Below, one piece after another: positions 7,721-29,660 of a DNA stretch of 32,380 nt (within the stretch, counting starts at the first letter, position 1; each line of letters starts with the position of its first letter). A program made the translations under genes and the position numbers. The stretch comes from a virus: the IMG/VR virus record IMGVR_UViG_3300027956_000006, one strand, 5' to 3'. The notes under the pieces are model-generated. The model worked only from the letters and a program-made list of their open reading frames with translations. It was not told the origin of the DNA and did no database searches.

Positions 7721-10700
7721 TTAAGCCTCTATATCTAACTTACATTCAATAATACTAGCAATCCGACATCTTGCAGTTGTAGTAAATTTTACTTTTTTCC
7801 ATCCCACCCCACTCACTGACGCTGTTAAATCTATATCTAATTGGTCAACAGTGTATGCTCCAATACTTGCCCCATATCCTGCTCCATTATCAACATAAAC
7901 ATTAATTGTAGGACTATTAGCTTCTTCGTATATTGCAAAAGTAAGATCATGTGCATGTGAAGGTGTAGCATGAGTATGATCTGGTGTAGCATGGGTATGA
8001 TTTGGGGTTGTATGTGTATGGGTAGTACCAAAAGTACTATTACTTGTAATTGTTCCACCACCAGTACATTCAATACTTGAATCACTAGCACGATATACTA
8101 TATTTTCAGATCCTGCAGCTAATCCTATAGGGAAAGTATGATAATGCCCGTTAATAGTATCTGTTAATACAACACCTGCAGTAGCACATACTAATACACC
8201 ACCACTATATCTAACAACATTTCCTATAGCGTTATTATTTACAACTGTTAAAGTATGTGTATGACTATCTGAACTAGATGTTGTTAATGTACAAGCTGAT
8301 AGTGCGGCAGATATTCCTAAAGTGCTCGCGTCAAAATACACACCATAAGCGCTTGTTCCATTAGCTAATGTGATTGTATGAGTATGGTTGCTGCTTGCAT
8401 CAACAGCACCAGAAGTTGACCCTCCACCAGAAACAGTTGTTGACCCTCCACCAGAAACAGTTGTTGACCCTCCACCAGAAGGAACACCAGTAGAGTATGC
8501 TCTAAAACTTAATATTTTAAAAGATAATTTTATGGAGTTTATCGCAACTAATTCTGATACAATTCTAAAAGGTATTTCATAAGGATAAGAAGTATCTAAG
8601 CTATCCTCACCTGTATATACTAATGTGTTACGTAATTGGTTATATTTATCTGCTGTAATAGAATCGGCAGCTAATCTATCTACATCTATGGTTCCTGCAG
8701 TAATATCATCAGCATTTAATGCGCCTCTAATTGTTAATGTACTCCCTGACCATATAATATAGTTATTATTATCTCCTTTAAAAGTGAATTGTCCAGTATT
8801 TGTAATATATACTAACCATTCTGCCCCAGAATAATACCCTAAATAATCACCACCAAAATATAAACCAGCTGTATCTGGAGTACCAATATTATCGCTACCA
8901 GTAATAGTTACCTTACCTTTAATGGTTAACCCATTTGTTGGATCATATTTTAAATATGCGTCAGTAGACCCTATACCTATCCCATATAGATCAGATACAT
9001 ACTCTAGAAACCCATTTAAATTACCAACTCTTAAATGTGTTGTTAGTATTGACCAAGGTTCACCATTATGTGTTACAACACTCATATAAGGGGAGTTAGT
9101 TTCTGACCCACTTAAATATACACCACCTTCTCCAGATTGACCATAATTTACTATAGAAGTACCTTTTTTCCATGCAGGTTTTTCGTTTGTTTGGTATGCA
9201 TTAGCTCTGTCCCTATTAATTTTATATATTGGTGCATTGGTGTTATCTGTTACAATTAACCATTCATCATCAACACCATCTTTTATTCTTAAAATATCAC
9301 CTATCGCAAAAGATGTATCTCCAATAATTTTCATAGTTGGTTGTTCATACACAAGTTTTATAGCATCTGCAATAACATATTCGTCAGCATTATCACTTAA
9401 AGTAATGATAGCTGTGCCACCAGCTTGAAAATTATATATCCCCAAGCTATACCAAGTAGCATGATTTAATTTTTGGTTAACTGATACTATTCCTTTATTA
9501 CCTTCATGAGTAGTAATGGTATATTTTGCATTTGTTGCTCTGTTGCTTGACGCGGTCCATATTGCAAATACTTCATAATTACCAGAAAGAGCAATTACTG
9601 GTAGCCAAGAAAATGTACTTGTTCCAGTACCACTTGTATGAAACTGATAGTTTATACCATAGTATCCAGGCGTAGATGTACTTAATGACCAAGTTCCAAC
9701 AACACTGATATTAGAATCATTATTATCTACAATAATATCACTTGTTGGATTATCTAAATTAGACATATCTGCATCTAATATGTCTGCATCCATGACTAAT
9801 AAGCTACCACCAACCGCAGAAATAGTATCTTTTTCAAAAACAGATGCAGTTAACTTACCACGCATTAATACATTATTAAATTCAGCATCCCCAGAATCTT
9901 GAATTTTAAAACCAGAGCCTAAATTACCTGAAACAAAGTTAGTACTTTGGATACTGTTTTGAGTAATAGATATATTACCTACTCTCGCGCCAGTAGTTGA
10001 AAATTTAGCTAATTCTTCCCCATCTTCATTATAAAAAAATGTTCCATTTCGGTTAAATTTAGCTAAAACATTATTTTCTGCAGATAGAATTTTTATTGAA
10101 GAACTATCTAATTCTAACGATCCTTGAGTATTTGTAATTTTAAGATTTTCAGATAATCTGATATTACCAATTAAATTATCAGCTAAAACTCTTCCAATTA
10201 CATCCCTTAATTTTTCTACAGAAGTATCATCAAACTCTTGTTCTTCTGTATAGACAATATCTTTTGCCGATATAATCCATCCATCATAACCGTCATCTGG
10301 TTTATCATCAACAATAGCAGAGGTGATACCTGGCTGAGGTATAATAATTTTACATATTTCACATTTTGTATCATCATGCGTTTTATTAATTTCAAATGCG
10401 TTATTATATACAACAACAAAAAAAACAGATACAGTATTATCAACTGGTATTTGTAATATTGCATCACTTTCAATAACCCATTTTCTACCATGTGAAGTAC
10501 ATGTCCCAGCTGAAATATTAATCGACATTGACGATGGTGTTGTTGCTGTTACGTCTAATCCAGACATAATATACGGTTTAATTAATTCAGCAAGATCAGA
10601 AGCAATGGTAGTAATGATTTCAGCTAATGCTCTAGAATCAATAGACCCACCAGCACCACTTGGTTGTACAGAATAACGGCTATCTGTTGTTGTAAGAGCT

Positions 10701-10765
10701 ATTCCGGTACGTTTGTTAATTTCTTTAACTACTTGTGGAAATAATGCAGAATATGTTTTTGTCAT
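7721..10765 (-). CDS. central tail fibre / tail-tip protein with inserted Golvesin/Xly-CBD-like domain and His-rich C-terminal region
   Basis: GFKIQDSGDAEFNNV and ITAGTIDVDRL motifs of gpJ-like fibres; Golvesin-like domain IIVDNND..GYYG..NRATNAKY..IADAIKL (~9345-9740); multiple HxH motifs. Confidence 0.75.
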   Translation of the reverse strand: MTKTYSALFPQVVKEINKRTGIALTTTDSRYSVQPSGAGGSIDSRALAEIITTIASDLAELIKPYIMSGLDVTATTPSSMSINISAGTCTSHGRKWVIESDAILQIPVDNTVSVFFVVVYNNAFEINKTHDDTKCEICKIIIPQPGITSAIVDDKPDDGYDGWIISAKDIVYTEEQEFDDTSVEKLRDVIGRVLADNLIGNIRLSENLKITNTQGSLELDSSSIKILSAENNVLAKFNRNGTFFYNEDGEELAKFSTTGARVGNISITQNSIQSTNFVSGNLGSGFKIQDSGDAEFNNVLMRGKLTASVFEKDTISAVGGSLLVMDADILDADMSNLDNPTSDIIVDNNDSNISVVGTWSLSTSTPGYYGINYQFHTSGTGTSTFSWLPVIALSGNYEVFAIWTASSNRATNAKYTITTHEGNKGIVSVNQKLNHATWYSLGIYNFQAGGTAIITLSDNADEYVIADAIKLVYEQPTMKIIGDTSFAIGDILRIKDGVDDEWLIVTDNTNAPIYKINRDRANAYQTNEKPAWKKGTSIVNYGQSGEGGVYLSGSETNSPYMSVVTHNGEPWSILTTHLRVGNLNGFLEYVSDLYGIGIGSTDAYLKYDPTNGLTIKGKVTITGSDNIGTPDTAGLYFGGDYLGYYSGAEWLVYITNTGQFTFKGDNNNYIIWSGSTLTIRGALNADDITAGTIDVDRLAADSITADKYNQLRNTLVYTGEDSLDTSYPYEIPFRIVSELVAINSIKLSFKILSFRAYSTGVPSGGGSTTVSGGGSTTVSGGGSTSGAVDASSNHTHTITLANGTSAYGVYFDASTLGISAALSACTLTTSSSDSHTHTLTVVNNNAIGNVVRYSGGVLVCATAGVVLTDTINGHYHTFPIGLAAGSENIVYRASDSSIECTGGGTITSNSTFGTTHTHTTPNHTHATPDHTHATPSHAHDLTFAIYEEANSPTINVYVDNGAGYGASIGAYTVDQLDIDLTASVSGVGWKKVKFTTTARCRIASIIECKLDIEA
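8415..8480. repeat. 24-bp in-frame tandem repeat (2.75 copies) encoding SGGGSTTV
   Basis: GTTGACCCTCCACCAGAAACAGTT at 8415 and 8439, partial copy at 8463. Confidence 0.9.
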
Positions 10766-11277: not shown

Positions 11278-14200
11278 CTATGGATAATATGCTAATGTTA
11301 ATGTTACCCTTTCATTAGTTGCGTTAATGCTCTCAACAAAATACCTACGAGAAATATTGTTGATGGTATCATTAACTAATAATGTTTGTGCAACACGTAC
11401 ATGTGGTGCATATAATGTCACTAAAGTTGCACGTGTGTGATTTTTTAAAAATTCGTTTAAATAATCTTTAGCACGTTTATCAACACGTTCTTGAGTATCC
11501 AAAAATTCATTTAATTTTGTTTCTTTATATAATTTATCCCCTACATACTCTAATAAATTATCATTATCATATGCCAATGTATCAGATTCTAATTGTTGTA
11601 CAACAATTTCTCCAGAAGAATAACTTGTTGCAATTCCAGCGCCAGAACAAGTATTTAAGGTTACACTATTTTTACTACCATAAGTAAACGCAATACTATT
11701 TATATATGCTGTTCCAGAATCATCAAATGTAGCTGTTGATACAACTGGAATATTTTGGGTAGTATTCGCGCCTGAATATAAATCACCCGTCCACGCACTT
11801 GATAATGTTGTTTGTGGTATTAATTTAGCTTCACCAACAAGAACAATATCTTTATACGCAGCAAATTCAACTAATGAAATAACATATACGCCATATTCAC
11901 CATAATCTATTTTATTCATATCCTGGATTAAGAGTCTAAAATATCGTGCTTCAAATGTATCACCTAAGTCACTCCTTTCAAACGATTTAGCCTCGCCACC
12001 AGATAGAGTGAAATTAATTGATTCTTTGCAAACATTGTAATATGTAGCATTATCTAATGAATATTGTAGCGTAAATTTATTTGTAACATCAATTGAACGT
12101 TTTTCATCAGGTTTAAAAAAACCATGCGTCATATCTATGGCTTGTATTGCTTGCACTTGGCCTAGATCTAATATCCAGTATACGAATCCAGCTGGTGGTT
12201 TAGCATAAAAGATAGTTTGTGTATATGTGTCCCACCTGCCATCAATAAAACAACTCGCTGTATCAATTGGAGTAACAATACTATAATATTCAAAATCTGC
12301 GGTAATAACAGATTTTGTAATATTAGCAATTAAATCTCTTGAAATCTTAAAAAGACAATTTTCAAAATCAATTACCAATTTTGATGTAGAATAATTTAAC
12401 CAAAATGATGCTGTTGATAATTGCTCTAAAATAGTATTACGTTGATCACCAGAAGGGCTCCAAGTTCCAGTTTCATAATTCATGCGTGCATCATTTGCAT
12501 CAATAGTAATTAATAATGTTCCATTAGCAGCATAAAAATATATTGGTTTTTCTCTAACAATATTTGTAGCTGGTAAATAAACCTTATAATAAAAGTATGT
12601 ATCTGTTTTTACATACTGTGACAAACAAATACCATGACAACCAGTGCGTGTATATAATGTAGTCGTTACTTCAACAATAACTTGTTGCATAATGATTTCA
12701 TGCACTTTATTATCGATAGGTACTCCATCAATGCGGACAACTGGCTGCATATTTTCTGTTGTAATCCACCCTGCTGCAGGTAGTCCAATACCATATACAC
12801 GATAATTACCTTCTTCATAACCATATGTTAATTCATGGTTATTCGCTCTAGCTGAATATGTTTCACCAGTAGTTAATAAAGTTACATTTTCATCCATACA
12901 AACATTTGTAGGGTTTTGTGCTTTACCTAAAAATTTAGTACGGGTATAGATATCAGTATCTTCTGCATAACTTAAACTTTCTTTTAGATCAATTTCAAAA
13001 TCTTCAACTGATTTTTGTTTTACATATTGTCCCCAAACTTTATCATCTCCGATAGTATTTAAAAGATAATTTGGTGCTAAATATTCACGAATTTTTTTAA
13101 TTGCCTCAAGACGATTTTCAGTTTTTTCATATGTAAAATCTATTTTATTGATTTCTATCCCAGTAGCTTGTAAAGTTTTAAAACTATAATTTACATTACA
13201 TGATACAGAAGTTGTTGTTGAAATGCTTTCGCTTAAAATAATTCTACCGTTTCTTTTATCGAAATAATCAATATTAGAGATATTGAAAGTATTATTGATT
13301 AACTCAATTTCACCAGCTGTGGTTTGTTGTAAAAGTGGGTCTGAGGAACCAGTGATATAAAATCTATAATATAGATACGCAGTATTATTACTAAATGTAA
13401 ATGTTAAAGTTGTTAATTTAGGAGTGCTATTAGTAATAGCGTTTGTTTGTGAATCTAACACAGTCCAATTTGTATTATCATTAGAACCTTGGAATTGCCA
13501 ACTAGTCATAGAACGATGTGGTGTATAATTTCTAGTCGTAACAGTATATCTACTAATTACCTCAGTAGTAGGAAATGCATATTTTAACCATACAGGAGCA
13601 CTTGGGGTAGCACATGTTGGAGCCATCCAAGAATCAGCACCATCATTATTACTATTATTAAAAGATGTCCAGGCGTATCTTCCAGCAAATTCCCCAGAAG
13701 AACTAACGGTTCCGCTTGGTGTAGAATATCCAGTCATATCTGGTGTTGCGTCTAAACCATTATTGGTAACATATAAATCAGTAATTAAATTAGAATATTT
13801 TAAATACCAAACTCTACCTGGAGCTGCTGAAAGATCATATATTACATTTGATCCAATAGGATGAGATTGAATAGCAGTACTTCCAGTAGCTGGTATTCCA
13901 TTTAATGTTGCTGTAGTTTTACTTGACCAGCTAAAGATATCTCCATTAACTTCTCCTATACCAGTAGCAGGAAAACCAGATGTATCTGTTACATATATAA
14001 TACTATCACCAGCTGTACATGCTGTTGTTAGAGTTGTACGTATTGATATAGTTTCGGTAAGATAATTAGGAACTAATGTATCGTACGCCTTATCAGTCAT
14101 ATTATAAAATGTTTCAGTTAGATGATTTGTAGTAACATCCGCAGCAGATGTTTCATTAAATAAATAATTATTGTAACCATCAACTGATGTAATGATAGTT

Positions 14201-14901
14201 TCTATAATATCTTCTGCATATTCACCAATAGGATAGAAGTAATATGAAGGGCAAATAATATCATAATTATAAAGAACATTTAATGCAGACCCTAATACTA
14301 ATTGCCCAGTTTCATAATTAATCTCAAACCCATCACCTGATGCTTGTGGTGTTTCGATTAATGTGTCTTTATTTCTAATAATAATTCCAATTGGTGGAAT
14401 TGGAGCTAAGGCATTATGTGCAAAATTAAATATTGAAGCTAAACTATCATTAGGGGCAGGTAAATATGTTGGGGTTAAAGTCTCATTAGTTACCTGTATT
14501 TTATCAGCTTCTATTTGTGCCTGTATTTCAGTATCTTGTAATCTACACAAAAGATCTAAACATGTTAAAATAATAACATTAGAGTTATATTTGCGTATTA
14601 TTTCCCTCTGACGCACATATCCTGTAAAATTAGTAAATTCATCACTTCCAGTAGCATAAAATCTTTCTTTTAATATTATAGTACTACCTAATCTAATTTC
14701 TGATACACATCCTGGTGAGTAATTTCCAGAATTATTATTAATTTCTATTGTTAATGAAGCAATACCAAATTCATAGGAAAAATTTTGATTGTAATTAATA
14801 ATATTATTATTAATTACGCCATTAATAGTAGTAGTATAAGAACGTACAATATCTTTACGTAAGAGTAGTTGTTGTGCTTTAGTGCTTAATGCTTTTGCCA
14901 T
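11278..14901 (-). CDS. baseplate hub / Tal-like tail protein with F5/8 type C (discoidin) domain insertions
   Basis: N-terminal FTGYVRQR..LTCLD and C-terminal APHVRVAQTL..YFVESI hub-like motifs; discoidin signatures WQFQGSND..WTVLD..YLYYRFYIT (~13290-13750) and ILDLG..LQYSLDN..ARYFRL (~11855-12265). Confidence 0.7.
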   Translation of the reverse strand: MAKALSTKAQQLLLRKDIVRSYTTTINGVINNNIINYNQNFSYEFGIASLTIEINNNSGNYSPGCVSEIRLGSTIILKERFYATGSDEFTNFTGYVRQREIIRKYNSNVIILTCLDLLCRLQDTEIQAQIEADKIQVTNETLTPTYLPAPNDSLASIFNFAHNALAPIPPIGIIIRNKDTLIETPQASGDGFEINYETGQLVLGSALNVLYNYDIICPSYYFYPIGEYAEDIIETIITSVDGYNNYLFNETSAADVTTNHLTETFYNMTDKAYDTLVPNYLTETISIRTTLTTACTAGDSIIYVTDTSGFPATGIGEVNGDIFSWSSKTTATLNGIPATGSTAIQSHPIGSNVIYDLSAAPGRVWYLKYSNLITDLYVTNNGLDATPDMTGYSTPSGTVSSSGEFAGRYAWTSFNNSNNDGADSWMAPTCATPSAPVWLKYAFPTTEVISRYTVTTRNYTPHRSMTSWQFQGSNDNTNWTVLDSQTNAITNSTPKLTTLTFTFSNNTAYLYYRFYITGSSDPLLQQTTAGEIELINNTFNISNIDYFDKRNGRIILSESISTTTSVSCNVNYSFKTLQATGIEINKIDFTYEKTENRLEAIKKIREYLAPNYLLNTIGDDKVWGQYVKQKSVEDFEIDLKESLSYAEDTDIYTRTKFLGKAQNPTNVCMDENVTLLTTGETYSARANNHELTYGYEEGNYRVYGIGLPAAGWITTENMQPVVRIDGVPIDNKVHEIIMQQVIVEVTTTLYTRTGCHGICLSQYVKTDTYFYYKVYLPATNIVREKPIYFYAANGTLLITIDANDARMNYETGTWSPSGDQRNTILEQLSTASFWLNYSTSKLVIDFENCLFKISRDLIANITKSVITADFEYYSIVTPIDTASCFIDGRWDTYTQTIFYAKPPAGFVYWILDLGQVQAIQAIDMTHGFFKPDEKRSIDVTNKFTLQYSLDNATYYNVCKESINFTLSGGEAKSFERSDLGDTFEARYFRLLIQDMNKIDYGEYGVYVISLVEFAAYKDIVLVGEAKLIPQTTLSSAWTGDLYSGANTTQNIPVVSTATFDDSGTAYINSIAFTYGSKNSVTLNTCSGAGIATSYSSGEIVVQQLESDTLAYDNDNLLEYVGDKLYKETKLNEFLDTQERVDKRAKDYLNEFLKNHTRATLVTLYAPHVRVAQTLLVNDTINNISRRYFVESINATNERVTLTLAYYP

Positions 14902-14903
14902 AA

Positions 14904-17561
14904 TTATGGTGTATTAATAATAAACCAAGGTGAATCAATTGATCTATTATTAAAATATAATGGTCCATTATTTCTAGTTGTATCTATTTTTGTATCAACT
15001 GTGCCACGATTATCTAATGCATAAATTGTTATATTTTGATCATAAGGCATAGAAAAATATGTTTCAATACGCTGTAATTGTACAGGAGCATTACCCCATT
15101 CAAAATGAGAACTATCTATCCAATATACACCAGTATTACGTACATCTCCCAATGTAACAACAATTAATGATTTAGATAAAGCAAAAGTTTCATTTGAAGT
15201 AGAAAATATAAATACTATGCCATTTGTTTTAGCTTTAAAAGTAATATTCCCTAATGTATATGTATTATCAGCTATTGATCCAATAATACCTTTAATTTGA
15301 TCAGCTTCAAATCTTAAAACTCCATCAGTATTGGTAAAACTCCAATTTGTCGCTTTTTGGAATATATATGCTCCTAATCCAGCTATAAGCATTTTTTGTG
15401 GATTAGGGGCAATATCAAAAAAAGAAGATAAATTACTAAAAGTTGCGTTATGGGAGAATGCAAAAATAAACATACCATTCCATTCATATTCTAATCCATA
15501 AATTGCCATCATTAAATTACCTTCATATGCATAATTATTTGGATAACAGTGTTGATATTCAGTTATTGTAAAAGGAAGAGTTTTTATTGTTTGTTGTACA
15601 TTGTTTACTGAGCCTACCATTCCTAATGTACTATGTGTTATCATACGCGTATTAGTTATGGTAAAATTATCACTATCCCAAGATATATTTGGGAATCTTG
15701 GATGGTCATGATAAGAATGTGCGTCATAAAAATCAGTATATCCATTATAATCTTCTTCGTCAGCATATGATTTTCCGCCGCCATTACATTGTATTAGAGC
15801 AGAACATCCAACAGTATTTTTAATATAATCACGCATTGTATTATAATAAGCACGTTCTGTATAATGCATAAATTCAGTAATATCTGCTTGATGTTGTGTA
15901 GTATAACTAGTTAAATATGCGTAATAAGGTCTATGAAAAGTAAAAGTAGTTTTATCTTTCTCAGTTATTTCAATAGGAAATCCATTGTATTCTTTAAGAA
16001 TAAAACTTCCTAATGTAACCGTACCAGTATTTTTTCCAACAAAAATTCTTGCCATCATAGTCCCTGCAAAAGTAGATTTGAAATATGTTTTATATTCTGT
16101 TGGAGTTGTAGTTATAGTTTTATTAATATTATAAGCTGGTTGATATTCTGGAGGACTAACAGCCTGTAAACTGACTTGAATAGTTCTTTCGGAAGAAGCA
16201 GATAACACTGTTGTTAATTCATATATTTTATCTGTACTGATAGTCAACCCCGTATTTCCATAATTTACATGCCAATCTGATGTACTAGCTGTGGTGATAG
16301 TTATTATACAAGAACCACTAGAATAAACTTTCGAAGCTACAGCTGGTAATACAACTCCCCAAGAATTACCTTGTACACTGTGGTCAAATATTTGTATACC
16401 TTCTGCTATTTCATTTAGTCCCCAAGCAGCAATAGTTGCTGCAGGAGTAATATATTTATTTTCTAGCCAGGTGTTCCATTGCAATGTTAATTCATTTAAA
16501 TAATATTCAGGATATCTAGTACTTGCATTACTATAAAGAGCTGGATCTAAATGCCCTGAGTTCCAATAATATTTTAAAAAACTATCTTCATTGACTATTT
16601 CGATTATGGCAAACATTGGGTCGTCTTTATACGCTAATCCAGTATATGGATTAATGTGTGATAAAACCTTATTAATATAATCTTTTTGTAATTCAATACA
16701 CCTAGTATCAAAATGAGTAATTGTTTTTAAAGGATTATGAACATCTAATGCACCTTCAAAATCTTGTGGTCCAATATATTCACATTTAATTGCGTCAGCA
16801 ATTACAATACCGTCTGCAACATCACTTAATACTACATTATTTGTTGTCCCAACACTCAAATAATAATCGCCTAAAGAGTTCCATACGCCACCATTAATAC
16901 GTTGGTTTTTTAATAAAATACCAGTCCCACTTGCGTGTGTAACTATAAATTTTGCGTTTGAAGTCCTATTATCATCTGCACTCCACATTGCATAAATACT
17001 ATAATTACCTTCTGTAATAATAGTTGGAGTAAATGTTGCTGTATATAATCCTGATCCAGATGATTTGTATTGATAATTACTACCATAATATCCTGCAGTA
17101 GTAGTACTACTTGTCCAACTACCAGTAAAAATACATGCAGCATCAAGATTATCAACAATAACATCAACAGCTATATCTTGATTAGTCCATTGTCTATAAC
17201 AATGTGTGCACAAGTAAGCATATATTCCTTTGCTCCGTAATTGTGCCATATAATAATCAAATAAATCCAATGCTGTCGTATCTAATGTTTGCGTTGTCCC
17301 ATCATTACTAAGAATACCACTTGGATAAAAATGATCTAAATGATGAATTCTAATAGCATTTATACCAAAAAATGATAAATAATCAGCATATAAAACAGCA
17401 TTTGTTTTTGATGGAACATTACCACTATATGCTAATCCTGCGCCAAAAATTTTAAAATTTTCGTTATTGCGTAAAAAGACACCTGCACCAGTAGTAATAG
17501 CTTCTATTGTTGTAGGTGTTGCAATTATTTTACCTATATTTGCAGGAGAATTATTATCCAT
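14904..17561 (-). CDS. clan GH-A (GH5-like) glycoside hydrolase with inserted Golvesin-like and CBM4/9-like domains
   Basis: GINAIRIHHLD, HINPYTGLAYKDDP, acid/base motif EIVNE, DAHSYHDHP, nucleophile motif TEYQH; TAATG overlap with the upstream gene. Confidence 0.78.
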   Translation of the reverse strand: MDNNSPANIGKIIATPTTIEAITTGAGVFLRNNENFKIFGAGLAYSGNVPSKTNAVLYADYLSFFGINAIRIHHLDHFYPSGILSNDGTTQTLDTTALDLFDYYMAQLRSKGIYAYLCTHCYRQWTNQDIAVDVIVDNLDAACIFTGSWTSSTTTAGYYGSNYQYKSSGSGLYTATFTPTIITEGNYSIYAMWSADDNRTSNAKFIVTHASGTGILLKNQRINGGVWNSLGDYYLSVGTTNNVVLSDVADGIVIADAIKCEYIGPQDFEGALDVHNPLKTITHFDTRCIELQKDYINKVLSHINPYTGLAYKDDPMFAIIEIVNEDSFLKYYWNSGHLDPALYSNASTRYPEYYLNELTLQWNTWLENKYITPAATIAAWGLNEIAEGIQIFDHSVQGNSWGVVLPAVASKVYSSGSCIITITTASTSDWHVNYGNTGLTISTDKIYELTTVLSASSERTIQVSLQAVSPPEYQPAYNINKTITTTPTEYKTYFKSTFAGTMMARIFVGKNTGTVTLGSFILKEYNGFPIEITEKDKTTFTFHRPYYAYLTSYTTQHQADITEFMHYTERAYYNTMRDYIKNTVGCSALIQCNGGGKSYADEEDYNGYTDFYDAHSYHDHPRFPNISWDSDNFTITNTRMITHSTLGMVGSVNNVQQTIKTLPFTITEYQHCYPNNYAYEGNLMMAIYGLEYEWNGMFIFAFSHNATFSNLSSFFDIAPNPQKMLIAGLGAYIFQKATNWSFTNTDGVLRFEADQIKGIIGSIADNTYTLGNITFKAKTNGIVFIFSTSNETFALSKSLIVVTLGDVRNTGVYWIDSSHFEWGNAPVQLQRIETYFSMPYDQNITIYALDNRGTVDTKIDTTRNNGPLYFNNRSIDSPWFIINTP

Positions 17562-20500
17562 TATGTTAAATCTAAAGAAAAATCATAATATTCAGTTACA
17601 ACTGATTCTTCAGAAACACTTATAGTGCTTACTTCATCAGTTGTATATTCTTGTAAAGTTAGCACTGTTTCTATTGTTTGTTTTATCCCAGACAATAAAT
17701 ATTCTTCTTGACATGTTTTGATATACCCAATAATATCTGTTTCTGTTCCAATAAGGGCTATTTTAACATATTCATTATTGTCAATATAATTTATAAATAA
17801 ATTTCTAATTTCATCAGTTAATAATATCGAAGGAAATCTAATTTTTAATTCTTTTTTATTATTTGTTGTTTCATTTGTAATATGTGCTAAATTACCCTCT
17901 AATAAGGTGTAAAAACTTTGTGTTTGTTCTTTAGATAATATAAGAGTATCTATACCACCAGGAGGAATATCTATTTGATATTCCCATAAACCAGTTACAG
18001 TATTATAAAGATAGACTAACCATCGTGCTATTGGTATTTCATATTCATATGCCCCAATATCATATGTACGACCTTGTGGACGTGATAATCCATTATAATC
18101 TGTTGTAACATCTACAATCGTACCTCTATCAATACATGGAGAATTTGTATATAAATTATATGTAACAGTTAATGCAGGATCACCAAAAATAGAGTTTAGA
18201 TCTTGTTGAGTAGCGGTTTGATAAGCTAGTAATGTGCTATAAGTTACTCCTTTATACAAAAAATTTAAAGCATATGCTTCGTTAGTTTCTGGGTCGCTCA
18301 AATTATAATAACAATTATAATCTGAATCAAAGTTAGTTAAATTACTATATGAATCAGCTAGAAAGTATAATGTTTCACCATTACCATAAGCAATATTGTT
18401 TTTTACTTCATAGTTGTTACCACCACTTTGTACAGAAAAAATAAACCCAGGAACAGTAGTATTTACACCACCAATCAGAGTATTATTGTAAAATTTAATA
18501 TTATCAGTAACTCCATGCGCTAGATCACCCTCTGTACCCATATTATATAAATTATTATAACAAATATTATTTTTCATTGTAACATTATAAACACCACTAT
18601 CACATACAATTCCAAATCTATCATTACCTTCGCAATAATTATTTTCTACTATAACATCATGACAATACCAACCAATATTTATACCATGACGGCAACCATT
18701 ATAAATTTTATTATTTTTAAAAGTTAAGCTGTAATTCGCCCCACCAGTAGAAGATATTTCAATACCTTCCCTAGAATTTCCAACATTATTAATAATATTA
18801 CCATCAAAGGTAATATTATAACATCCATAACTTTGGCCATATATTTGTAGTCCACCTATTTTATCGTCTCCAATAACTGTACAATTTTGTATATTAAAAT
18901 CATGGCAAATATCAGTTAAACCAATAGCAAGCGCTTGATTACCGGTAATATTATTAGCATCAAAAGTGCACCCTATTATGTCTATAAAACTATGTCTTCC
19001 ATAAAATTCTAAAGGATGGTTGCTTGTTAAAGCTCTAAAATGTAAGTTTTCAAATTTAAAATAATTTGCATCATGTTGTTGACTATGCCACCAATAGAAT
19101 TTTGGTAGATCACCAGAACTATAATCACTAAAAGTAATAATATTATTTGCTATGCCAAAAATGTTATATAGTTCCCATGTTTCATCCCAGATATCACCTC
19201 TTTTAAATAATAATTTATCGTTAGGATGCAGTGTTGCCGTACTGAGAAAACTTAAGGTTTGTAATGGATATATAGTATCTTTACCAGAATTAGTATCATT
19301 TCCAGAAGTTGAAATGTAAAAGGTATTAGCTTGATATGCTCCCATAGAATAATACCCAGGTATTCGTTCAATTCCTGCATAATCAGTTGTTATAGATATT
19401 ATATCAACCCCTACTATTCTAGCAGGTGAATTAATTGATAACCCATAATCAGAACATAATAAAGGGTTAGACGCCATAGAATTAGCATCTTGACCGGTTG
19501 TGGATTGATATAGAGCAAATTGGGCATAAGAATATTGGGTACTATAATAAAAGCTATCTCCCGCTATTGTTTTATAATAACAATTATAATCAAAGTTAAT
19601 ATTAGTATCTTGTGTAGTAGCTTTTCTTAGACAATATCCATCGACCACAGATATTATATTATTTTTAAAAGTTATGTCATGATTAATTGTTACTCCATCG
19701 CTGCCAACAAATAAACCATTACAAGTGGTTACTCCTGTAAAAGTGTTATTGTAGATATTAAAATACTTTGTTCCAGTTTGTAAATATGTTAAATATTCTG
19801 TGCAATCAGTAATAAGATTATTATAAAAATTAATTGTATATCCATCATTACCTGAACCATATGTCCATACCCCATTAGCACAATTATCAAAATGGTTATT
19901 ATAAATATTTGTATCATGTTGTATTGTGCCATTGATAAAAATACCATTCTTATATTTTAATGTTTGTCCTGACTCTCCAGAAGTAAAAGAAGTGCCCACA
20001 TTAGAAACAGAATTATTGTAGCAATCTCCACCACCAAAACCTATTCCCATCTCCCAACAATCATAGCCAATATTATCATGCATCGTGTAATAATCGCCAG
20101 CATTGACTAAAGTTTCCATGTTTAAGAGAATACATGAACTGTCATACGAGGTAACTCCATACATTTCTGAAAAAGGTGATTTCCAAAACTCTACATTTGC
20201 CGCCCATACTGTATGAAGCGTAGGTTCGCTTGTATAATATCTGCGACCACCACCACACTGTTTAGTAGTAAGATTCCTAACGATAATATGATGGCCCTGG
20301 CTTATCATTATTTGATAAACAAGGTAGTCACCATTGCCGTCTATCATTGTTGCGCCGCCAGTAGCAGAAGAATAAAGACCTGCTGTTTTCTGAAAAGTAA
20401 TGTTTTCTAAAATAATATAACAGTTATTATTTTTCGCTTGTGTACCACCGTTATGAGATAACCAAGCACTTACATTTCTTGCACCAACTTCTATTATATG

Positions 20501-22771
20501 AGTATTTGGATTAGTGTCATCCGTACAACGGATAAGAACTTTACTGTTTACTAAATCATATCCCCATTGTCCTGATGCGTTTATTGTTTCACTATTTTCA
20601 TAATCTCGATACGTCAATCTAACATCATCTTCCCATACTTGAGCAGTCTCATTCATAACCTTAGACCAGATATTACCACCTTCATCAGTCCAATCAGTAA
20701 CAATATCACTACCATCTATAATTGGTTCTGCTCCGGTGCCATAAGAAGTATAAGTTATAGGTGAATCTTCTGTTCCTGAATACCAACAATGCAATGTCTC
20801 TCTCCAAGTATCGCCACGATTGAAATAAACTATATCATTTGGAGCAAAAAAACTTGAACTGACTTGTGCTAATGTTGTAAAATCTTGTGTTCCATCATTT
20901 GATACATAAAATTTACCATTCCATTGATATGCCCCAATATCATACTCACCATTACGAGGTCTAATATTAGATTCATAATCTTCTGTAATATTAATTTCAG
21001 TCCCAGTATTAATACAAGATGAATTAGAAAAGAGTCTATATTTATCAGTTAACGAAGGAGTAGTAGATATAGAATGTTGATCTTGATTTGATATATTTTG
21101 CCAATTACCAAGCGTAGTATAATAAGTACTAGAAACTCTGGCTAATATAGAAACATTCCAACAATTATAATCTATATCAAATTCAGATATATCACTAGCG
21201 CTATTAAACCTTAGTCCAACTTCAGTTGTAGTATCAAAAATATTATTTTTTATAATATAATTAGATAACATTGTAGCTGTATTAGAATAAAGCATTAAAT
21301 GGCTACCATTTACACCATTCCATCTTTGATCATGGGCCCATCCACCACCTGCGTACCTACATGTATTATTAATATATTGAACATTATTTACTGTTGTTGT
21401 AATATCTCTTTCCCATATTTCTATAGAATACTCACAATTAGTAATAATATTATTCTGAAAAACAACATTATTAATTACATATGTACCTGATCCTTGAGTT
21501 GTAATACCAGCATCGTATACATTATCTATTCTACATTTTTCAATTAATAAATTAGAAGCATTACCATAGAATTCAATAGCATTGCCTAATCTAACAGTAT
21601 AATCACTATATTGATCAGCGCCCCCAATAAATGAAAAGTCACAACTTCTAATAATTGAACTATTAGCAACACCACTACCTATTCCATGTCTACCCCAATA
21701 TCTAAAGTCTAAATTTTCTATAATAACATAACTTTTATTACCAGAAACTCCATTATGATGAAGCGCTAATTCAACATCGGTATAATAACTTGCAGGATTA
21801 CTAATTGAATAAAGTAAAACACAATCATTGTCAAAATCATACCAAAAATCACCTTGTGCACTTAAATCATTAGAAGATTGTTTTTTTACCCCACAACTAT
21901 TTTCATTATTAAAAATAATATTACCAACATCTAAAGTTAATAAATTAGGGGCATTGCAATTATTAAATGATACCGTATCAAAATATAATATTGCACCATC
22001 TGGGATAATATTACCTAAATACCAAGTCAATCTTGCATCTGCAGCAGTTGTATCAGCTTGATAATAAATAGTAAATGTTTTCCAATCAGTAGTAATAGCA
22101 CAACTTTGTGAAGAAGAGGTCGAATAGTAATGTTCCCAAGGTGAACCTTCTTGCATTAAAGGTATACTTAAGATAGTAAAATCTATTGTCGTTTTTGCTT
22201 TAAATATTAGCTTATACCATTGTCCTGAAATAATACTAACAATATTTGTAGTAGATGTATATAATTGAATATCACTACTAGTAATACCATTATTTACACA
22301 AATAAGTTTATACCCTGCTATACCACTATCAAATTCACCTACTGTAGTAGTTCTTCCACTTCCAGTAGTATCTGCACCATTAGTTGTATTACGGTATAAC
22401 GACCATCCAGTAGTATCAACTTCAAATGATGTATTATTTAATAATTCGCTACCAATAATAGTTGCATTTACACCAGATGTTTGCCAAATATTATTACTAA
22501 AATCTCCCCAGTCAGATGAAGCATTAGCTTGCCAAGAGCCTAAAATTAAAGGTTTATTTCCTGTACCATAAGCTCCATATGTTACATAACCAGCAATAGA
22601 TCCATTGGAAGGGGTTAATGCTTCTCTCCAAGTATCCCCCCGTTTGAATAAAATGCTATCACTAGGGCTAAATGTAACAGAAGTAACTTTTTCAATTGTA
22701 GCCCAAGCATTAGCGTCTGAAAGACCATCTAAAATATCATTGCCACCATTTTTAATATAATATATAGCCAT
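17561..22771 (-). CDS. giant right-handed beta-helix (pectin-lyase-fold) protein, three modules plus CBM4/9-like insert, with C-terminal Dit-like domain
   Basis: Three modules each starting (Y/F)Y(I/V)..G.D..F(K/N)RGD.W and ending NNI..DYNC..(DI/SM)GAY; CBM-like ELLNNTSFE..YFDTVS; C-terminal ~130 aa align with the adjacent 148-aa ORF. Confidence 0.8.
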   Translation of the reverse strand: MAIYYIKNGGNDILDGLSDANAWATIEKVTSVTFSPSDSILFKRGDTWREALTPSNGSIAGYVTYGAYGTGNKPLILGSWQANASSDWGDFSNNIWQTSGVNATIIGSELLNNTSFEVDTTGWSLYRNTTNGADTTGSGRTTTVGEFDSGIAGYKLICVNNGITSSDIQLYTSTTNIVSIISGQWYKLIFKAKTTIDFTILSIPLMQEGSPWEHYYSTSSSQSCAITTDWKTFTIYYQADTTAADARLTWYLGNIIPDGAILYFDTVSFNNCNAPNLLTLDVGNIIFNNENSCGVKKQSSNDLSAQGDFWYDFDNDCVLLYSISNPASYYTDVELALHHNGVSGNKSYVIIENLDFRYWGRHGIGSGVANSSIIRSCDFSFIGGADQYSDYTVRLGNAIEFYGNASNLLIEKCRIDNVYDAGITTQGSGTYVINNVVFQNNIITNCEYSIEIWERDITTTVNNVQYINNTCRYAGGGWAHDQRWNGVNGSHLMLYSNTATMLSNYIIKNNIFDTTTEVGLRFNSASDISEFDIDYNCWNVSILARVSSTYYTTLGNWQNISNQDQHSISTTPSLTDKYRLFSNSSCINTGTEINITEDYESNIRPRNGEYDIGAYQWNGKFYVSNDGTQDFTTLAQVSSSFFAPNDIVYFNRGDTWRETLHCWYSGTEDSPITYTSYGTGAEPIIDGSDIVTDWTDEGGNIWSKVMNETAQVWEDDVRLTYRDYENSETINASGQWGYDLVNSKVLIRCTDDTNPNTHIIEVGARNVSAWLSHNGGTQAKNNNCYIILENITFQKTAGLYSSATGGATMIDGNGDYLVYQIMISQGHHIIVRNLTTKQCGGGRRYYTSEPTLHTVWAANVEFWKSPFSEMYGVTSYDSSCILLNMETLVNAGDYYTMHDNIGYDCWEMGIGFGGGDCYNNSVSNVGTSFTSGESGQTLKYKNGIFINGTIQHDTNIYNNHFDNCANGVWTYGSGNDGYTINFYNNLITDCTEYLTYLQTGTKYFNIYNNTFTGVTTCNGLFVGSDGVTINHDITFKNNIISVVDGYCLRKATTQDTNINFDYNCYYKTIAGDSFYYSTQYSYAQFALYQSTTGQDANSMASNPLLCSDYGLSINSPARIVGVDIISITTDYAGIERIPGYYSMGAYQANTFYISTSGNDTNSGKDTIYPLQTLSFLSTATLHPNDKLLFKRGDIWDETWELYNIFGIANNIITFSDYSSGDLPKFYWWHSQQHDANYFKFENLHFRALTSNHPLEFYGRHSFIDIIGCTFDANNITGNQALAIGLTDICHDFNIQNCTVIGDDKIGGLQIYGQSYGCYNITFDGNIINNVGNSREGIEISSTGGANYSLTFKNNKIYNGCRHGINIGWYCHDVIVENNYCEGNDRFGIVCDSGVYNVTMKNNICYNNLYNMGTEGDLAHGVTDNIKFYNNTLIGGVNTTVPGFIFSVQSGGNNYEVKNNIAYGNGETLYFLADSYSNLTNFDSDYNCYYNLSDPETNEAYALNFLYKGVTYSTLLAYQTATQQDLNSIFGDPALTVTYNLYTNSPCIDRGTIVDVTTDYNGLSRPQGRTYDIGAYEYEIPIARWLVYLYNTVTGLWEYQIDIPPGGIDTLILSKEQTQSFYTLLEGNLAHITNETTNNKKELKIRFPSILLTDEIRNLFINYIDNNEYVKIALIGTETDIIGYIKTCQEEYLLSGIKQTIETVLTLQEYTTDEVSTISVSEESVVTEYYDFSLDLT

Positions 22772-22773
22772 TT

Positions 22774-23220
22774 TTACACCAATGACCCATCTGCGTCAAC
22801 ATCAAATTCTTGCATTGTTATTTCAACAATATATTTTTGCGTTGTATCACCAGGTATCCATTGTTCGTTATATTTTAGTAAGTATCCTTCAAGCTTTTTT
22901 TCAGAATATAAATTTGCCCCACTATTAATAGGGACAGTAATTCTTACGCCCTGATTATTATCTATATAATCAGATAATTGAGTACGTACAGTATCGGTAA
23001 TGACTTGTTTTGGGAAAGTTAAAGTAATAGTTTGCCAATTCGCTTTATGCTCAGACGACATTAAAGATAATGATCCATCAGCTAATGTCATAAAGTTAAT
23101 GTTAGCTTGATTTGTACGTGTTAATGAATTTAAACCAGCTCTAGGAATTGATGTATCTCTTACCCATAAACTTGTCCCAGTATCAAAATGTTCAATTGAC
23201 CAATATTTTATTCTACTCAT
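22774..23220 (-). CDS. putative distal tail (Dit)-like protein
   Basis: 148 aa, first structural-looking gene after the tape measure; beta-strand pattern (TLADGS, ITLTFP, YIVEITMQE) like small Dit proteins. Confidence 0.6.
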   Translation of the reverse strand: MSRIKYWSIEHFDTGTSLWVRDTSIPRAGLNSLTRTNQANINFMTLADGSLSLMSSEHKANWQTITLTFPKQVITDTVRTQLSDYIDNNQGVRITVPINSGANLYSEKKLEGYLLKYNEQWIPGDTTQKYIVEITMQEFDVDADGSLV

Positions 23221-23267: not shown

Positions 23268-23801
23268 TTATAAATATTTTATACTACCATCATTAAGTTT
23301 ATATGTTCCACCTGTATACATATGTACCATAGAATTATTAGTAGTTAATTGTATATTTTCAGGTAATGTTGACGCTGCTGTTAAAACAGCATTAGTCGCT
23401 GTTGTTGTATAAGTTATTTGCAGATTATCAGCTGCTGTACACCACCAAGGTGGAACATATGGTGTATATTGTGGTTTAATTTCTATTTCCCAAGGGATAT
23501 ACCAAGGAACAGAAACTTGTTTTTCTATTATTTTTTCTTTAATAATAATAATAGATGCTTCTTTTGCTTTCGGATCGATATCCTGACGTTCTTTAATGCG
23601 ATCTATACGGCCATCTTTCATGTCCTCTAAATCGCGTTTTAATATTCTAATTTCTTCATCTAATTTTTGTCTTTGTTCTTCTTTTTGCTTTAATATTTCC
23701 AATGTTGTTTTTACTATAATTTTAATGCGTTTTATCTCTTCTTCCTTCATTTCATTTTCTGCTAACTTTACCCCTTCTTTTACTATTTCTTTTTGCGTCA
23801 T
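23268..23801 (-). CDS. hypothetical protein (N-terminal coiled coil, Pro/Trp-rich middle) enclosed by the inverted repeat
   Basis: 177-aa ORF with AAAGGGG RBS. Confidence 0.75.
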   Translation of the reverse strand: MTQKEIVKEGVKLAENEMKEEEIKRIKIIVKTTLEILKQKEEQRQKLDEEIRILKRDLEDMKDGRIDRIKERQDIDPKAKEASIIIIKEKIIEKQVSVPWYIPWEIEIKPQYTPYVPPWWCTAADNLQITYTTTATNAVLTAASTLPENIQLTTNNSMVHMYTGGTYKLNDGSIKYL

Positions 23802-23821
23802 GTATTTCCCCTTTCTATTCT

Positions 23822-23843
23822 TGGCATCTCTATACCAAATTTA
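23822..23843. repeat. right arm of perfect 22-bp inverted repeat
   Basis: TGGCATCTCTATACCAAATTTA. Confidence 0.95.
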
Positions 23844-23858
23844 AATATATTATAACCT

Positions 23859-24134
23859 TTATACAATTAAATCTTCTTTAGTTGTGCAATAAATAATACT
23901 TTTCAAATCTTGGATTGCATGGATAAAAGGATTTACTTGAACACTTCCATCATTATAAAAATCCTTTGCTAATTGGACACAATCTGATTGATCATCAAAA
24001 ATAAATGTTACCCTTTTACCATCACGACTAATATTAATTAATTTAATATTTTTACTTTTTAAATATGCTGCTAAATAGAAATCACTTACTGGGTATCCTT
24101 TTGTTTTTTCATCTTTTTTTAAATTAAACATCAT
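23859..24134 (-). CDS. DUF5659-like small protein
   Basis: SDFYLAAYL..R.G.RV.FIF..V.P.F..AI..LK..IY pattern recalled for DUF5659; AAGGAG RBS. Confidence 0.65.
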   Translation of the reverse strand: MMFNLKKDEKTKGYPVSDFYLAAYLKSKNIKLINISRDGKRVTFIFDDQSDCVQLAKDFYNDGSVQVNPFIHAIQDLKSIIYCTTKEDLIV

Positions 24135-28859: not shown

Positions 28860-29660
28860 TTATACTGCCGATGTAAACATTCCAGAACCAGTTAAAGTTG
28901 GATATACACCTAATGTTTTATCATATAGATAATTAACATATGCGTAATTTGGACCAATATTCTTTAATGTTCCAACCAATGCTGATTGAGGTATGGTTAC
29001 TGTTTTATTTGCAGCTACCATAGAAGCAGTAATTGCTACTTCTTCTGTATTAAAAGTTGAAATATGTGTTCCAGAACGAGTTTCTTGAATAGCAACAACA
29101 CGCAATGCATATACCGATTCATCAGGTACTTGCAATGGTGTATATGCTAATGTTCCAACATAACCAGATGCTCCAGATGCTAACCTAATTTTACTACCCA
29201 TAATAGGTTGTGTAAACTCTTTGGCAGGTTCAGCATTACCAGCGAGTGAACGTGTTCCCTTAGCATTAGTATCACCAGTATTTAACCCAGGTACAGGTAG
29301 CCAGTTCTTAAAAATTACAGAACGGGTATACTGGGTATTTGCTGTATTGATTCTATTTGCCCAAACAGTTGTCTGGAAAATATTATTCCAGTTGTACTGT
29401 TTATTATTTGCATCGTCAGGGTCATCTTGTTGTAATACATCAAGAATAGTATTGTTAGAAACTTTATCATACACTTGTAATGTTACCGTAGCATTGTTTA
29501 CACTCACATCTAAGATAGGATCATCATCACCAAAGATGTGAATAACATCCTGTGTAGCATCAATTGCACCAGTTAATTCATTAGCACAATCAATGAAGTA
29601 TCCTTCAACAAATACTATCTCTTTTTTCCTTTTAACTAAATCAGATGCTAATACGCCCAT
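28860..29660 (-). CDS. major tail (tube) protein
   Basis: 266 aa, beta-rich, strong GGAGGTGA RBS, canonical position before the chaperone. Confidence 0.7.
   Translation of the reverse strand: MGVLASDLVKRKKEIVFVEGYFIDCANELTGAIDATQDVIHIFGDDDPILDVSVNNATVTLQVYDKVSNNTILDVLQQDDPDDANNKQYNWNNIFQTTVWANRINTANTQYTRSVIFKNWLPVPGLNTGDTNAKGTRSLAGNAEPAKEFTQPIMGSKIRLASGASGYVGTLAYTPLQVPDESVYALRVVAIQETRSGTHISTFNTEEVAITASMVAANKTVTIPQSALVGTLKNIGPNYAYVNYLYDKTLGVYPTLTGSGMFTSAV

Follow-up and report, generated by a model that had tools for sequence, protein, structure and literature searches.

A Dit-like ring domain duplicated onto the C terminus of a giant beta-helix protein: a candidate tail-tip anchor in an uncultured phage

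Paralogous ring domains in a tail-tip operon

Here, we describe a tail-tip locus of an uncultured phage, IMG/VR record IMGVR_UViG_3300027956_000006, whose genome is a single 175,053-base contig that is complete according to CheckV; the window, that is, the whole stretch of DNA analyzed, comprises 32,380 nucleotides, and positions refer to it unless they are preceded by the label of another locus. Our subject is a pair of adjacent genes on the minus strand: one encodes a protein of 148 amino acids (aa), P0002, that we assign as a distal tail (Dit) protein consisting of its ring domain only, and the other a 1736-aa protein, P0001, in which three tandem beta-helix modules precede a C-terminal paralogue of that domain. 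Both lie in a row of tail-tip genes that reads, along the minus strand, tape measure protein (TMP; 1177 aa), a 91-aa protein, a 177-aa protein, P0002, P0001, P0003, and a 1207-aa hub protein (Table 1). The Dit, P0001, P0003, and hub genes are joined by the junctions TAA-AA-ATG, TAATG, and TAA-TT-ATG, that is, by 2-base gaps or, between P0001 and P0003, by the 1-base overlap of TAATG, and because they are packed so tightly, their arrangement suggests coupled translation.

The two ring domains are related over their full length. Residues 4 to 142 of P0002 align with residues 1581 to 1712 of P0001 in the sole BLASTP alignment between the two proteins (27% identity, 53% positives, E 4e-17), which is broken by one gap of 7 residues. 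Two profiles from which P0001 was excluded, one built from 10 close bare orthologues and the other from 43 distant family members, detect its C terminus at E 7e-18 and 1.5e-22, respectively, and neither has another match among the 605 open reading frames (ORFs) of the whole 175-kb genome, which holds two copies of the domain only. These results bear out a preliminary description of the window, which gave the coordinates of both ORFs correctly and claimed that the last ~130 aa of the large protein align with its small neighbour. By sequence comparison, then, the C-terminal ~135 residues of P0001 are a true paralogue of P0002. The paralogue keeps all 17 positions that are invariant in alignment A1, with the core W7, W19, I25-P26, G29, G49, and G112-Y113 intact. 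In a maximum-likelihood tree it falls inside the clade of window-type bare Dits (support 99/99) on a branch of 1.96 substitutions per site, and a larger FastTree phylogeny places it identically, inside the clade that holds the bare Dit of its own genome; the trees indicate that the ring gene was duplicated in the window's lineage and that the copy now forms the C terminus of P0001. The closest relative that we found, a 135-kb phage (L001) whose flanking genes are 52-76% identical to those of the window, has neither the P0001 gene nor that of P0003 (885 aa). Because its bare Dit gene is joined directly to the hub gene by TAA-TT-ATG, the same junction that links P0003 to the hub in the window, the gene comparison identifies P0001 and P0003 as a lineage-specific insertion between Dit and hub.

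Table 1. Features of the tail-tip locus discussed in the text
Feature	Positions	Strand	Evidence
TMP, 1177 aa	24195..27728	-	Length, composition, position, synteny with related loci
P0002, 148 aa, assigned as ring-only Dit; predicted tail-tube/Hcp fold	22774..23220	-	AlphaFold2 (AF2) model, Foldseek, VIA-align, hub adjacency of orthologues
P0001, 1736 aa, fusion of three beta-helix modules and a C-terminal Dit-derived ring domain	17561..22771	-	BLASTP, self-BLAST, Pfam, NCBIfam
P0001 module 1, residues 1-615: N-cap, weak CBM4_9-like insertion (~109-252), beta-helix, choice-of-anchor Q end (574-615)	20927..22771	-	
P0001 module 2, residues 616-1147: beta-helix homologous to modules 1 and 3	19331..20926	-	Self-BLAST, E 1e-9 to 1e-13
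P0001 module 3, residues 1148-1577: beta-helix and choice-of-anchor Q end (~1534-1577)	18041..19330	-	
Dit-derived domain with predicted tube fold, P0001 residues 1581-1712	17636..18031	-	BLASTP, independent profiles, tree
Acidic C-terminal tail of P0001, 24 residues after the ring domain, not in bare Dits	17564..17635	-	Alignment A1
P0003, 885 aa, Golvesin_C / xanthan-lyase-type binding domain, weak GH5-like matches	14904..17561	-	Pfam, PDB
Tail hub, 1207 aa: Tal/gp27/VgrG-like N terminus and F5/8 type C domain	11278..14901	-	AF2, Foldseek, VIA-align, Pfam

P0002 has no sequence match in PHROGs, Pfam, NCBIfam, or PDB, and its assignment draws on a predicted structure and on its genomic neighbours. 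An AF2 model built from an 11-sequence alignment matches, among the PDB entries listed, nearly exclusively chains of tail tubes, Hcp, tube initiators, and baseplate rings (Foldseek E 2e-4 at best), including those of NF5, monocin, 80alpha, lambda gpV, the T4 baseplate-tube complex, and Hcp1, with VIA-align Z scores of 9.6-8 across 125-135 residues; the predicted fold supports the Dit-like identity first proposed for this protein. In the viral structure library, the matches that carry names are tube, major-tail, and tail-assembly proteins and one Dit-like protein, the majority being unnamed. An Atlas feature similarity of 0.96 to DUF6711 clusters and a structural neighbour labelled Dit-like (TM score 0.65) serve as leads only. 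Since the predicted fold does not tell tube, Dit, and initiator proteins apart, we turned to gene context for the assignment.

That context is anchored on the hub. Residues 1-400 of the 1207-aa protein, modelled by AF2 with 27 homologues (predicted local distance difference test score [pLDDT] 78.5), match the hubs of HFTV1, phi812, pyocin R2, and RcGTA, T5 pb3, lambda gpL, T4 gp27, and VgrG (Z 11.4-8; Foldseek and VIA-align), and because these are structures of the gp27/VgrG/Tal type, the model identifies the protein, which also has a Pfam F5_F8_type_C match, as the tail hub (Tal). Using the hub N terminus as query, we retrieved 19 viral and 68 metagenomic loci, which gave 66 distinct loci with both genes. 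In 49 of the 66, a single tube-fold ORF of 116-158 aa (counted stop to stop) ends at the hub start or at most 60 bases from it, and the TMP gene directly precedes the Dit-hub pair wherever upstream sequence is present, as in L003 and L006; in the window, two small genes precede P0002 and the two inserted genes separate it from the hub. A TMP-Dit-Tal triad has been described by Goulet et al. 2020 (PMC7291167), where the ring-only form is assigned to lambda gpM. The P0002 chain likewise stops after the ring domain and has no peripheral C-terminal galectin or OB domain, which cannot be obligatory for a Dit, because lambda gpM is described without one too (PMC7291167). Given the predicted tube fold, of moderate confidence, and the position between TMP and hub, we assign P0002 as the minimal, ring-only Dit of this clade, like lambda gpM.

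Beta-helix cargo of cellular type

The remainder of P0001 consists of three modules that are mutually homologous (25-42% identity over segments in self-BLAST). Modules 1 and 3 match Pfam Beta_helix (E 6.8e-7, 29.5 bits, and E 1.2e-8, 35.2 bits, against a gathering cutoff of 25.9) and choice_anch_Q (NCBIfam NF041518; E 1.4e-5 and 2.5e-13), and module 2, which has no Pfam match of its own above threshold, is tied to the beta-helix only through its homology to the other two. Module 1 also has a weak CBM_4_9 match (Pfam E 0.018). All three modules lead from an N-cap, which resembles PDB 7v6m and the lacto-N-biosidase 6kqs, via the helix to a short terminal piece. The three pectin-lyase-fold modules of the preliminary description are thus real and homologous, yet the "triple beta-helix" of its title does not apply: they are three tandem right-handed parallel beta-helix units.

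Relatives of these modules are cellular. In 185,579 species genomes, a scan detected 118 of them, in many phyla, and residues 4-615 of module 1 are 41-42% identical, across the CBM4_9-like insertion as well, to cellular proteins (at L093, L138, L133, and L132) from metagenome-assembled genomes of Prolixibacteraceae, Anaerolinea, Bacteroidetes, and Saccharibacteria. As pointers to a host, the module homologues give Bacteroidota, Anaerolinea, and Saccharibacteria matches that are equally close. With a cellular protein, module 1 reaches a score of up to 424 bits, compared with ~60-73 bits for its sister modules, which rules out a recent internal triplication. Half of the cellular homologues examined (4/8) consist of an N-cap, a helix, and a choice-of-anchor Q piece followed by a type A sorting domain for type IX secretion (T9SS; Por_Secre_tail). 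Cellular surface proteins of this kind (L091, L092, L093, and L133) share with P0001 the module that runs from N-cap to choice-of-anchor Q and the use of a C-terminal anchor; in P0001, the signal peptide and the sorting domain are absent, three modules are concatenated, with a phage ring domain as the anchor. In the L093 protein, the stretch that aligns with module 1 begins after ~18 N-terminal residues, taken to be a signal peptide, and stops at the choice-of-anchor Q end; P0001, read by sequence, has no obvious N-terminal signal peptide and starts directly with the beta-helix N-cap. Its ring domain occupies the C-terminal anchor position, ~3 residues past the last choice-of-anchor Q piece. 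From this correspondence, we infer that the C-terminal phage anchor may copy the layout of the captured cellular proteins, with the cargo first and the anchor last.

The second inserted gene is also related to carbohydrate-active proteins. P0003 matches Golvesin_C (Pfam E 5e-34), the C-terminal part of a Paenibacillus xanthan lyase (PDB 6f2p, E 5e-25), and, weakly, GH5 mannanases (E 0.02-0.06). Golvesin_C is found in two different tail proteins of the window, encoded at 7721-10765 and 14904-17561 (E 7e-36 and 5e-34). The clustering of carbohydrate-related domains in the tail-tip genes agrees with the earlier suggestion of a "cellulosome-like" tail tip, which holds as an analogy only.

A candidate anchor and its alternatives

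On balance, we consider it probable that the Dit duplicate serves as a C-terminal anchor through which P0001 becomes part of the tail tip at the level of Dit. P0002 would assemble into a hexameric ring of tube fold, placed between the tail tube and the 1207-aa hub trimer, and the duplicated ring gene would have become joined to the C terminus of three cellular-type beta-helix modules, 1577 residues in all, with the Dit-derived domain in the anchor position of a phage protein that lacks the signal peptide and the sorting domain. A 3+3 ring might then arise in which the P0001 ring domain and the bare subunit alternate; such a ring would match the three-fold hub and require only those lateral contacts that were inherited from the parent. 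Alternatively, P0001 could make up a second ring, stacked onto that of the bare protein, in keeping with the gene order. Both geometries are plausible, and either of them would give the tail tip three or six pendent arms of putative glycan-binding or glycan-degrading modules. The fuller scheme, in which phages of this clade make virion parts out of host-type surface glycan enzymes by an anchor swap, the duplicated Dit ring replacing the T9SS sorting domain and coassembling with the bare Dit as a heterohexamer or second ring, with three different monomeric enzymes per arm, is possible, and we advance it only tentatively; if true, such a swap would give phages a general and modular way to new host ranges that dispenses with the trimeric tailspike architecture. 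The incorporation of P0001 into virions, its membership of the ring, its stoichiometry, and its enzymatic activity are all points that we infer.

Several observations weigh against an anchor at the level of Dit: (i) the linker between the last beta-helix and the first ring strand measures only ~3 residues in alignment A1; (ii) of 37 positions at which the close bare orthologues show little or no variation, the P0001 ring domain has lost 20, a conserved loop of 7 residues among them, and because of these losses and of its very long branch, it may have given up ring formation; (iii) the AF2 model of P0002 is of moderate quality (pLDDT 66.5), and its TM scores to the matches are about 0.5; (iv) neither PF21821 (Dit_like) nor PF20458 (DUF6711) matches P0002, P0001, or 52 family members, nor do these families find a match in a six-frame search of the genome that admitted E values as high as 10; (v) the fusion is known from a single sequence only, the identical protein being present on 7 contigs; and (vi) P0001 may be nonstructural.

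Part of this evidence would be met if the C-terminal domain of P0001 were instead a peripheral dock that sits outside the bare Dit ring, the tube, or the hub, in the manner of BppU-type N-terminal domains or tailspike adaptors. The long branch with its many lost bare-Dit positions, the loop among them, and the very short linker to a bulky beta-helix speak for such a dock, and spikes usually attach by noncovalent docking on Dit (PMC7291167), as RcGTA TspA illustrates. However, the alignment spans the whole fold with one gap, and the invariant core positions are kept. To our knowledge, moreover, no tube-fold domain acts as a lateral dock, and we regard this explanation as unlikely. Alternatively, P0001 could be a soluble enzyme that is released at lysis, for instance, to degrade capsule or biofilm, and never enters the virion, with the Dit-like tail as the decaying remnant of a recombination event. 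Its cargo is of cellular type and probably monomeric, its ring domain evolves fast, and the fusion is unique among 1.84 billion representatives and 66 related loci, all of which would suit such an enzyme; yet the gene lies between Dit and hub in a tail-tip operon of tightly packed, overlapping genes, the ring domain is full-length with intact core residues, and related lineages have repeatedly attached binding domains to the same Dit, so that we hold a nonvirion role to be decidedly unlikely.

It would also be conceivable that the 148-aa family is another tube-fold part, such as a tube initiator or an adaptor ring, and that the true Dit is encoded elsewhere. The missing Pfam Dit_like match, the inability of the fold search to separate tube, Dit, and initiator, and the presence in the window of the 91-aa and 177-aa genes between TMP and P0002 leave room for this idea, whereas L003 and L006 do not: there, TMP, the 148-aa family gene, and the hub follow one another directly, with no place for another Dit. 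The 177-aa protein is not encoded in either of these loci, and its only PDB matches are weak, nonsignificant ones to helical or coiled-coil proteins (E at least 0.2). Moreover, a tube-fold ring between tube and hub is the functional meaning of Dit, and we consider a different identity for the family very improbable indeed.

Tail tips of known and related phages

An anchor at the level of Dit has partial counterparts in known phages. Lambda gpM (PMC7291167), like P0002, is a small protein that consists of the ring domain only and is encoded between the TMP and hub genes; P0002 differs from this type of Dit in having no detectable Pfam Dit_like similarity and in being accompanied by a cargo-bearing paralogue. 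In the evolved Dits of siphophages of Lactobacillus, Lactococcus, and Streptococcus, the Dit ring displays carbohydrate-binding modules (CBMs) at the periphery of the tail tip (PMC7291167, PMC10688798). These proteins are single copy, with an N-terminal ring domain and one or two small CBMs in loops of the C-terminal galectin domain, whereas P0001 is a second gene copy whose ring domain is C-terminal and stands behind 1577 residues of cargo.

The closest parallel is that of the ceduoviruses c2 and bIL67, for which Goulet et al. 2025 predicted with AlphaFold3 a 3+3 heterohexameric Dit-like ring (PMC12474359). Its subunits, L15 and L16, are adjacent Hcp-like paralogues with a CBM and a GH30-like (glycoside hydrolase family 30-like) domain, and the ring is bound to a VgrG/Tal-like trimer (PMC12474359). 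As in the window, two adjacent tube-fold paralogues replace one Dit and provide for peripheral cargo, but both ceduovirus proteins carry theirs in a middle domain behind an N-terminal ring domain, whereas P0002 is bare and P0001 has a giant N-terminal cargo; no sequence relationship between the two pairs was detected. The ceduovirus Tal is described with an N-terminal CBM (PMC12474359), which shows that others have regarded N-terminal cargo on a ring subunit of tube fold as feasible. A heterohexamer of Hcp proteins, Hcp2-Hcp3 of Bacteroides fragilis, is named in the title of PDB 9vne. A cargo-bearing Dit-like ring of two paralogues was thus already predicted, and the view that such an arrangement had not been described was too strong. 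What sets the window's pair apart from the known systems is the combination of a bare partner, a C-terminal ring domain, a 1577-residue cargo of three modules of cellular type, and the absence of a Pfam Dit_like match.

Tailspikes of the P22 TSP type are trimers that dock noncovalently through an N-terminal adaptor domain. P0001 resembles them in presenting right-handed beta-helices for surface glycans at the tail tip, a role that is putative in its case, and differs from them in the cellular type of its modules, in having three per chain, and in the covalent, C-terminal fusion to a ring domain. Nor does P0001 have the marks of a trimeric tailspike: it has no N-terminal adaptor, its nearest relatives are cellular, and a tblastn search against 50,697 GenBank phage records gave no match.

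Within the clade, the theme of cargo on a duplicated Dit recurs with the opposite polarity. In the 130-kb phage of L003 and L005, the order is TMP, bare 148-aa Dit, a 688-aa protein, a 461-aa protein, and hub, and the 688-aa protein carries the ring domain at residues 10-143, followed by a fibre-like extension. In L007, an extended paralogue of 379 aa is accompanied by one of 964 aa, which has two Laminin_G_3 stretches, and L059 (430 aa) and L061 (240 aa) encode single extended forms. The ring domain is N-terminal in every extended form of these four loci (L005, L007, L059, and L061), so that the C-terminal extensions of the 964-aa and 688-aa proteins come nearer to the evolved-Dit layout. Because the extended forms fall in different clades of the tree, such Dits arose several times. 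A single ancient cargo lineage behind the paralogues of the window and of L003 is ruled out, since each of them groups with the bare Dit of its own genome, in separate clades of good support. The fused domain in L005 has as its nearest relative the sole bare Dit of the phage at L006, which suggests that at least this cargo-bearing copy kept full ring competence.

A profile search of 1.84 billion representatives returned 63 family members, among which only P0014, P0017, and P0056 appeared as fused forms; P0014 represents a fragment of P0001 itself, and P0056, a 5226-aa protein of Ig-like repeats, is a false positive. No other protein with a C-terminal ring domain was found among these representatives, the 66 loci, or the GenBank phages, and a word-indexed search with alignment A2 returned no longer fused forms, which is weak evidence. 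In these sets, the bare-plus-cargo theme, as in L005, extends beyond the window, but the C-terminal polarity does not.

Receptor-binding devices set the host range of phages, and what is known of them comes mostly from a few cultured groups. In the uncultured clade described here, which has no relative among the 50,697 GenBank phage records, the Dit ring has been duplicated and elaborated several times, and once in an inverted topology with three beta-helix modules of cellular type. If confirmed, an anchor at the level of Dit would extend the concept of the evolved Dit to N-terminal cargo, would provide a case from nature of Dit rings that are mixed or stacked, and would point to a simple recombination route by which phages recruit surface enzymes of their hosts. 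The ring domain could also serve as a display scaffold in phage engineering.

The neighbourhood of the Dit and hub genes varies among the related loci in other respects as well. A 152-aa ORF with a weak zinc-ribbon match lies between bare Dit and hub in L013 (L013:5396-5851) and L014 (L014:9541-9996), and L033 and L050 have gaps of ~620 bases in the same place; insertions seem to favour the Dit-hub junction. The 91-aa DUF5659 gene and the 177-aa gene between TMP and Dit (23268-24134) are present in L001 and missing from L003 and L006, where the TMP gene directly abuts the Dit gene, and we class them as an accessory insert outside the core triad. In L001, the TMP gene is followed by the gene of a 458-aa zf-FCS protein (L001:7739-9115), and the hub is broken into three ORFs of 560, 235, and 441 aa (L001:10447-14166). 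Hub ORFs in four further loci open ~780, 425, 380, and 265 residues upstream of the hub domain (L022:7559-12883, L043:1327-4014, L015:4990-8445, and L019:9995-13360, respectively). To judge from these reading frames, the hubs may carry large N-terminal extensions, which would again place N-terminal cargo on a ring subunit of tube fold; the extension in L022 has no Pfam match. An HNH endonuclease gene stands between the TMP and Dit genes in L019 (L019:8699-9526), and the hub homologue P0100 carries PF14528, a family of LAGLIDADG homing endonucleases; the tail-tip operon seems to be a target of mobile endonucleases or inteins.

A contractile tail is unlikely in the window's phage: the complete genome has no Phage_sheath_1 match and no sheath-sized gene upstream of TMP, which is weak evidence in so diverged a phage. 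A putative tube protein of 266 aa is encoded at 28860-29660. At either end, the 175,053-base contig is a periodic repeat with 9-base units of the type GGCTACGGC / GGCAACGGC, and the repeats probably mark an assembly break inside a repetitive Gly/Tyr/Asn/Asp-rich gene, not true genome termini. Among the related loci, L051 to L054 are the same Dit-hub locus found four times, ~109 kb apart, on the contig JGI24729J20445_1000001 (419,765 bases); the IMG/VR record of the same phage (L010) measures 109,385 bases, and the contig looks like a fourfold concatemer, either an assembly artefact or replicative DNA.

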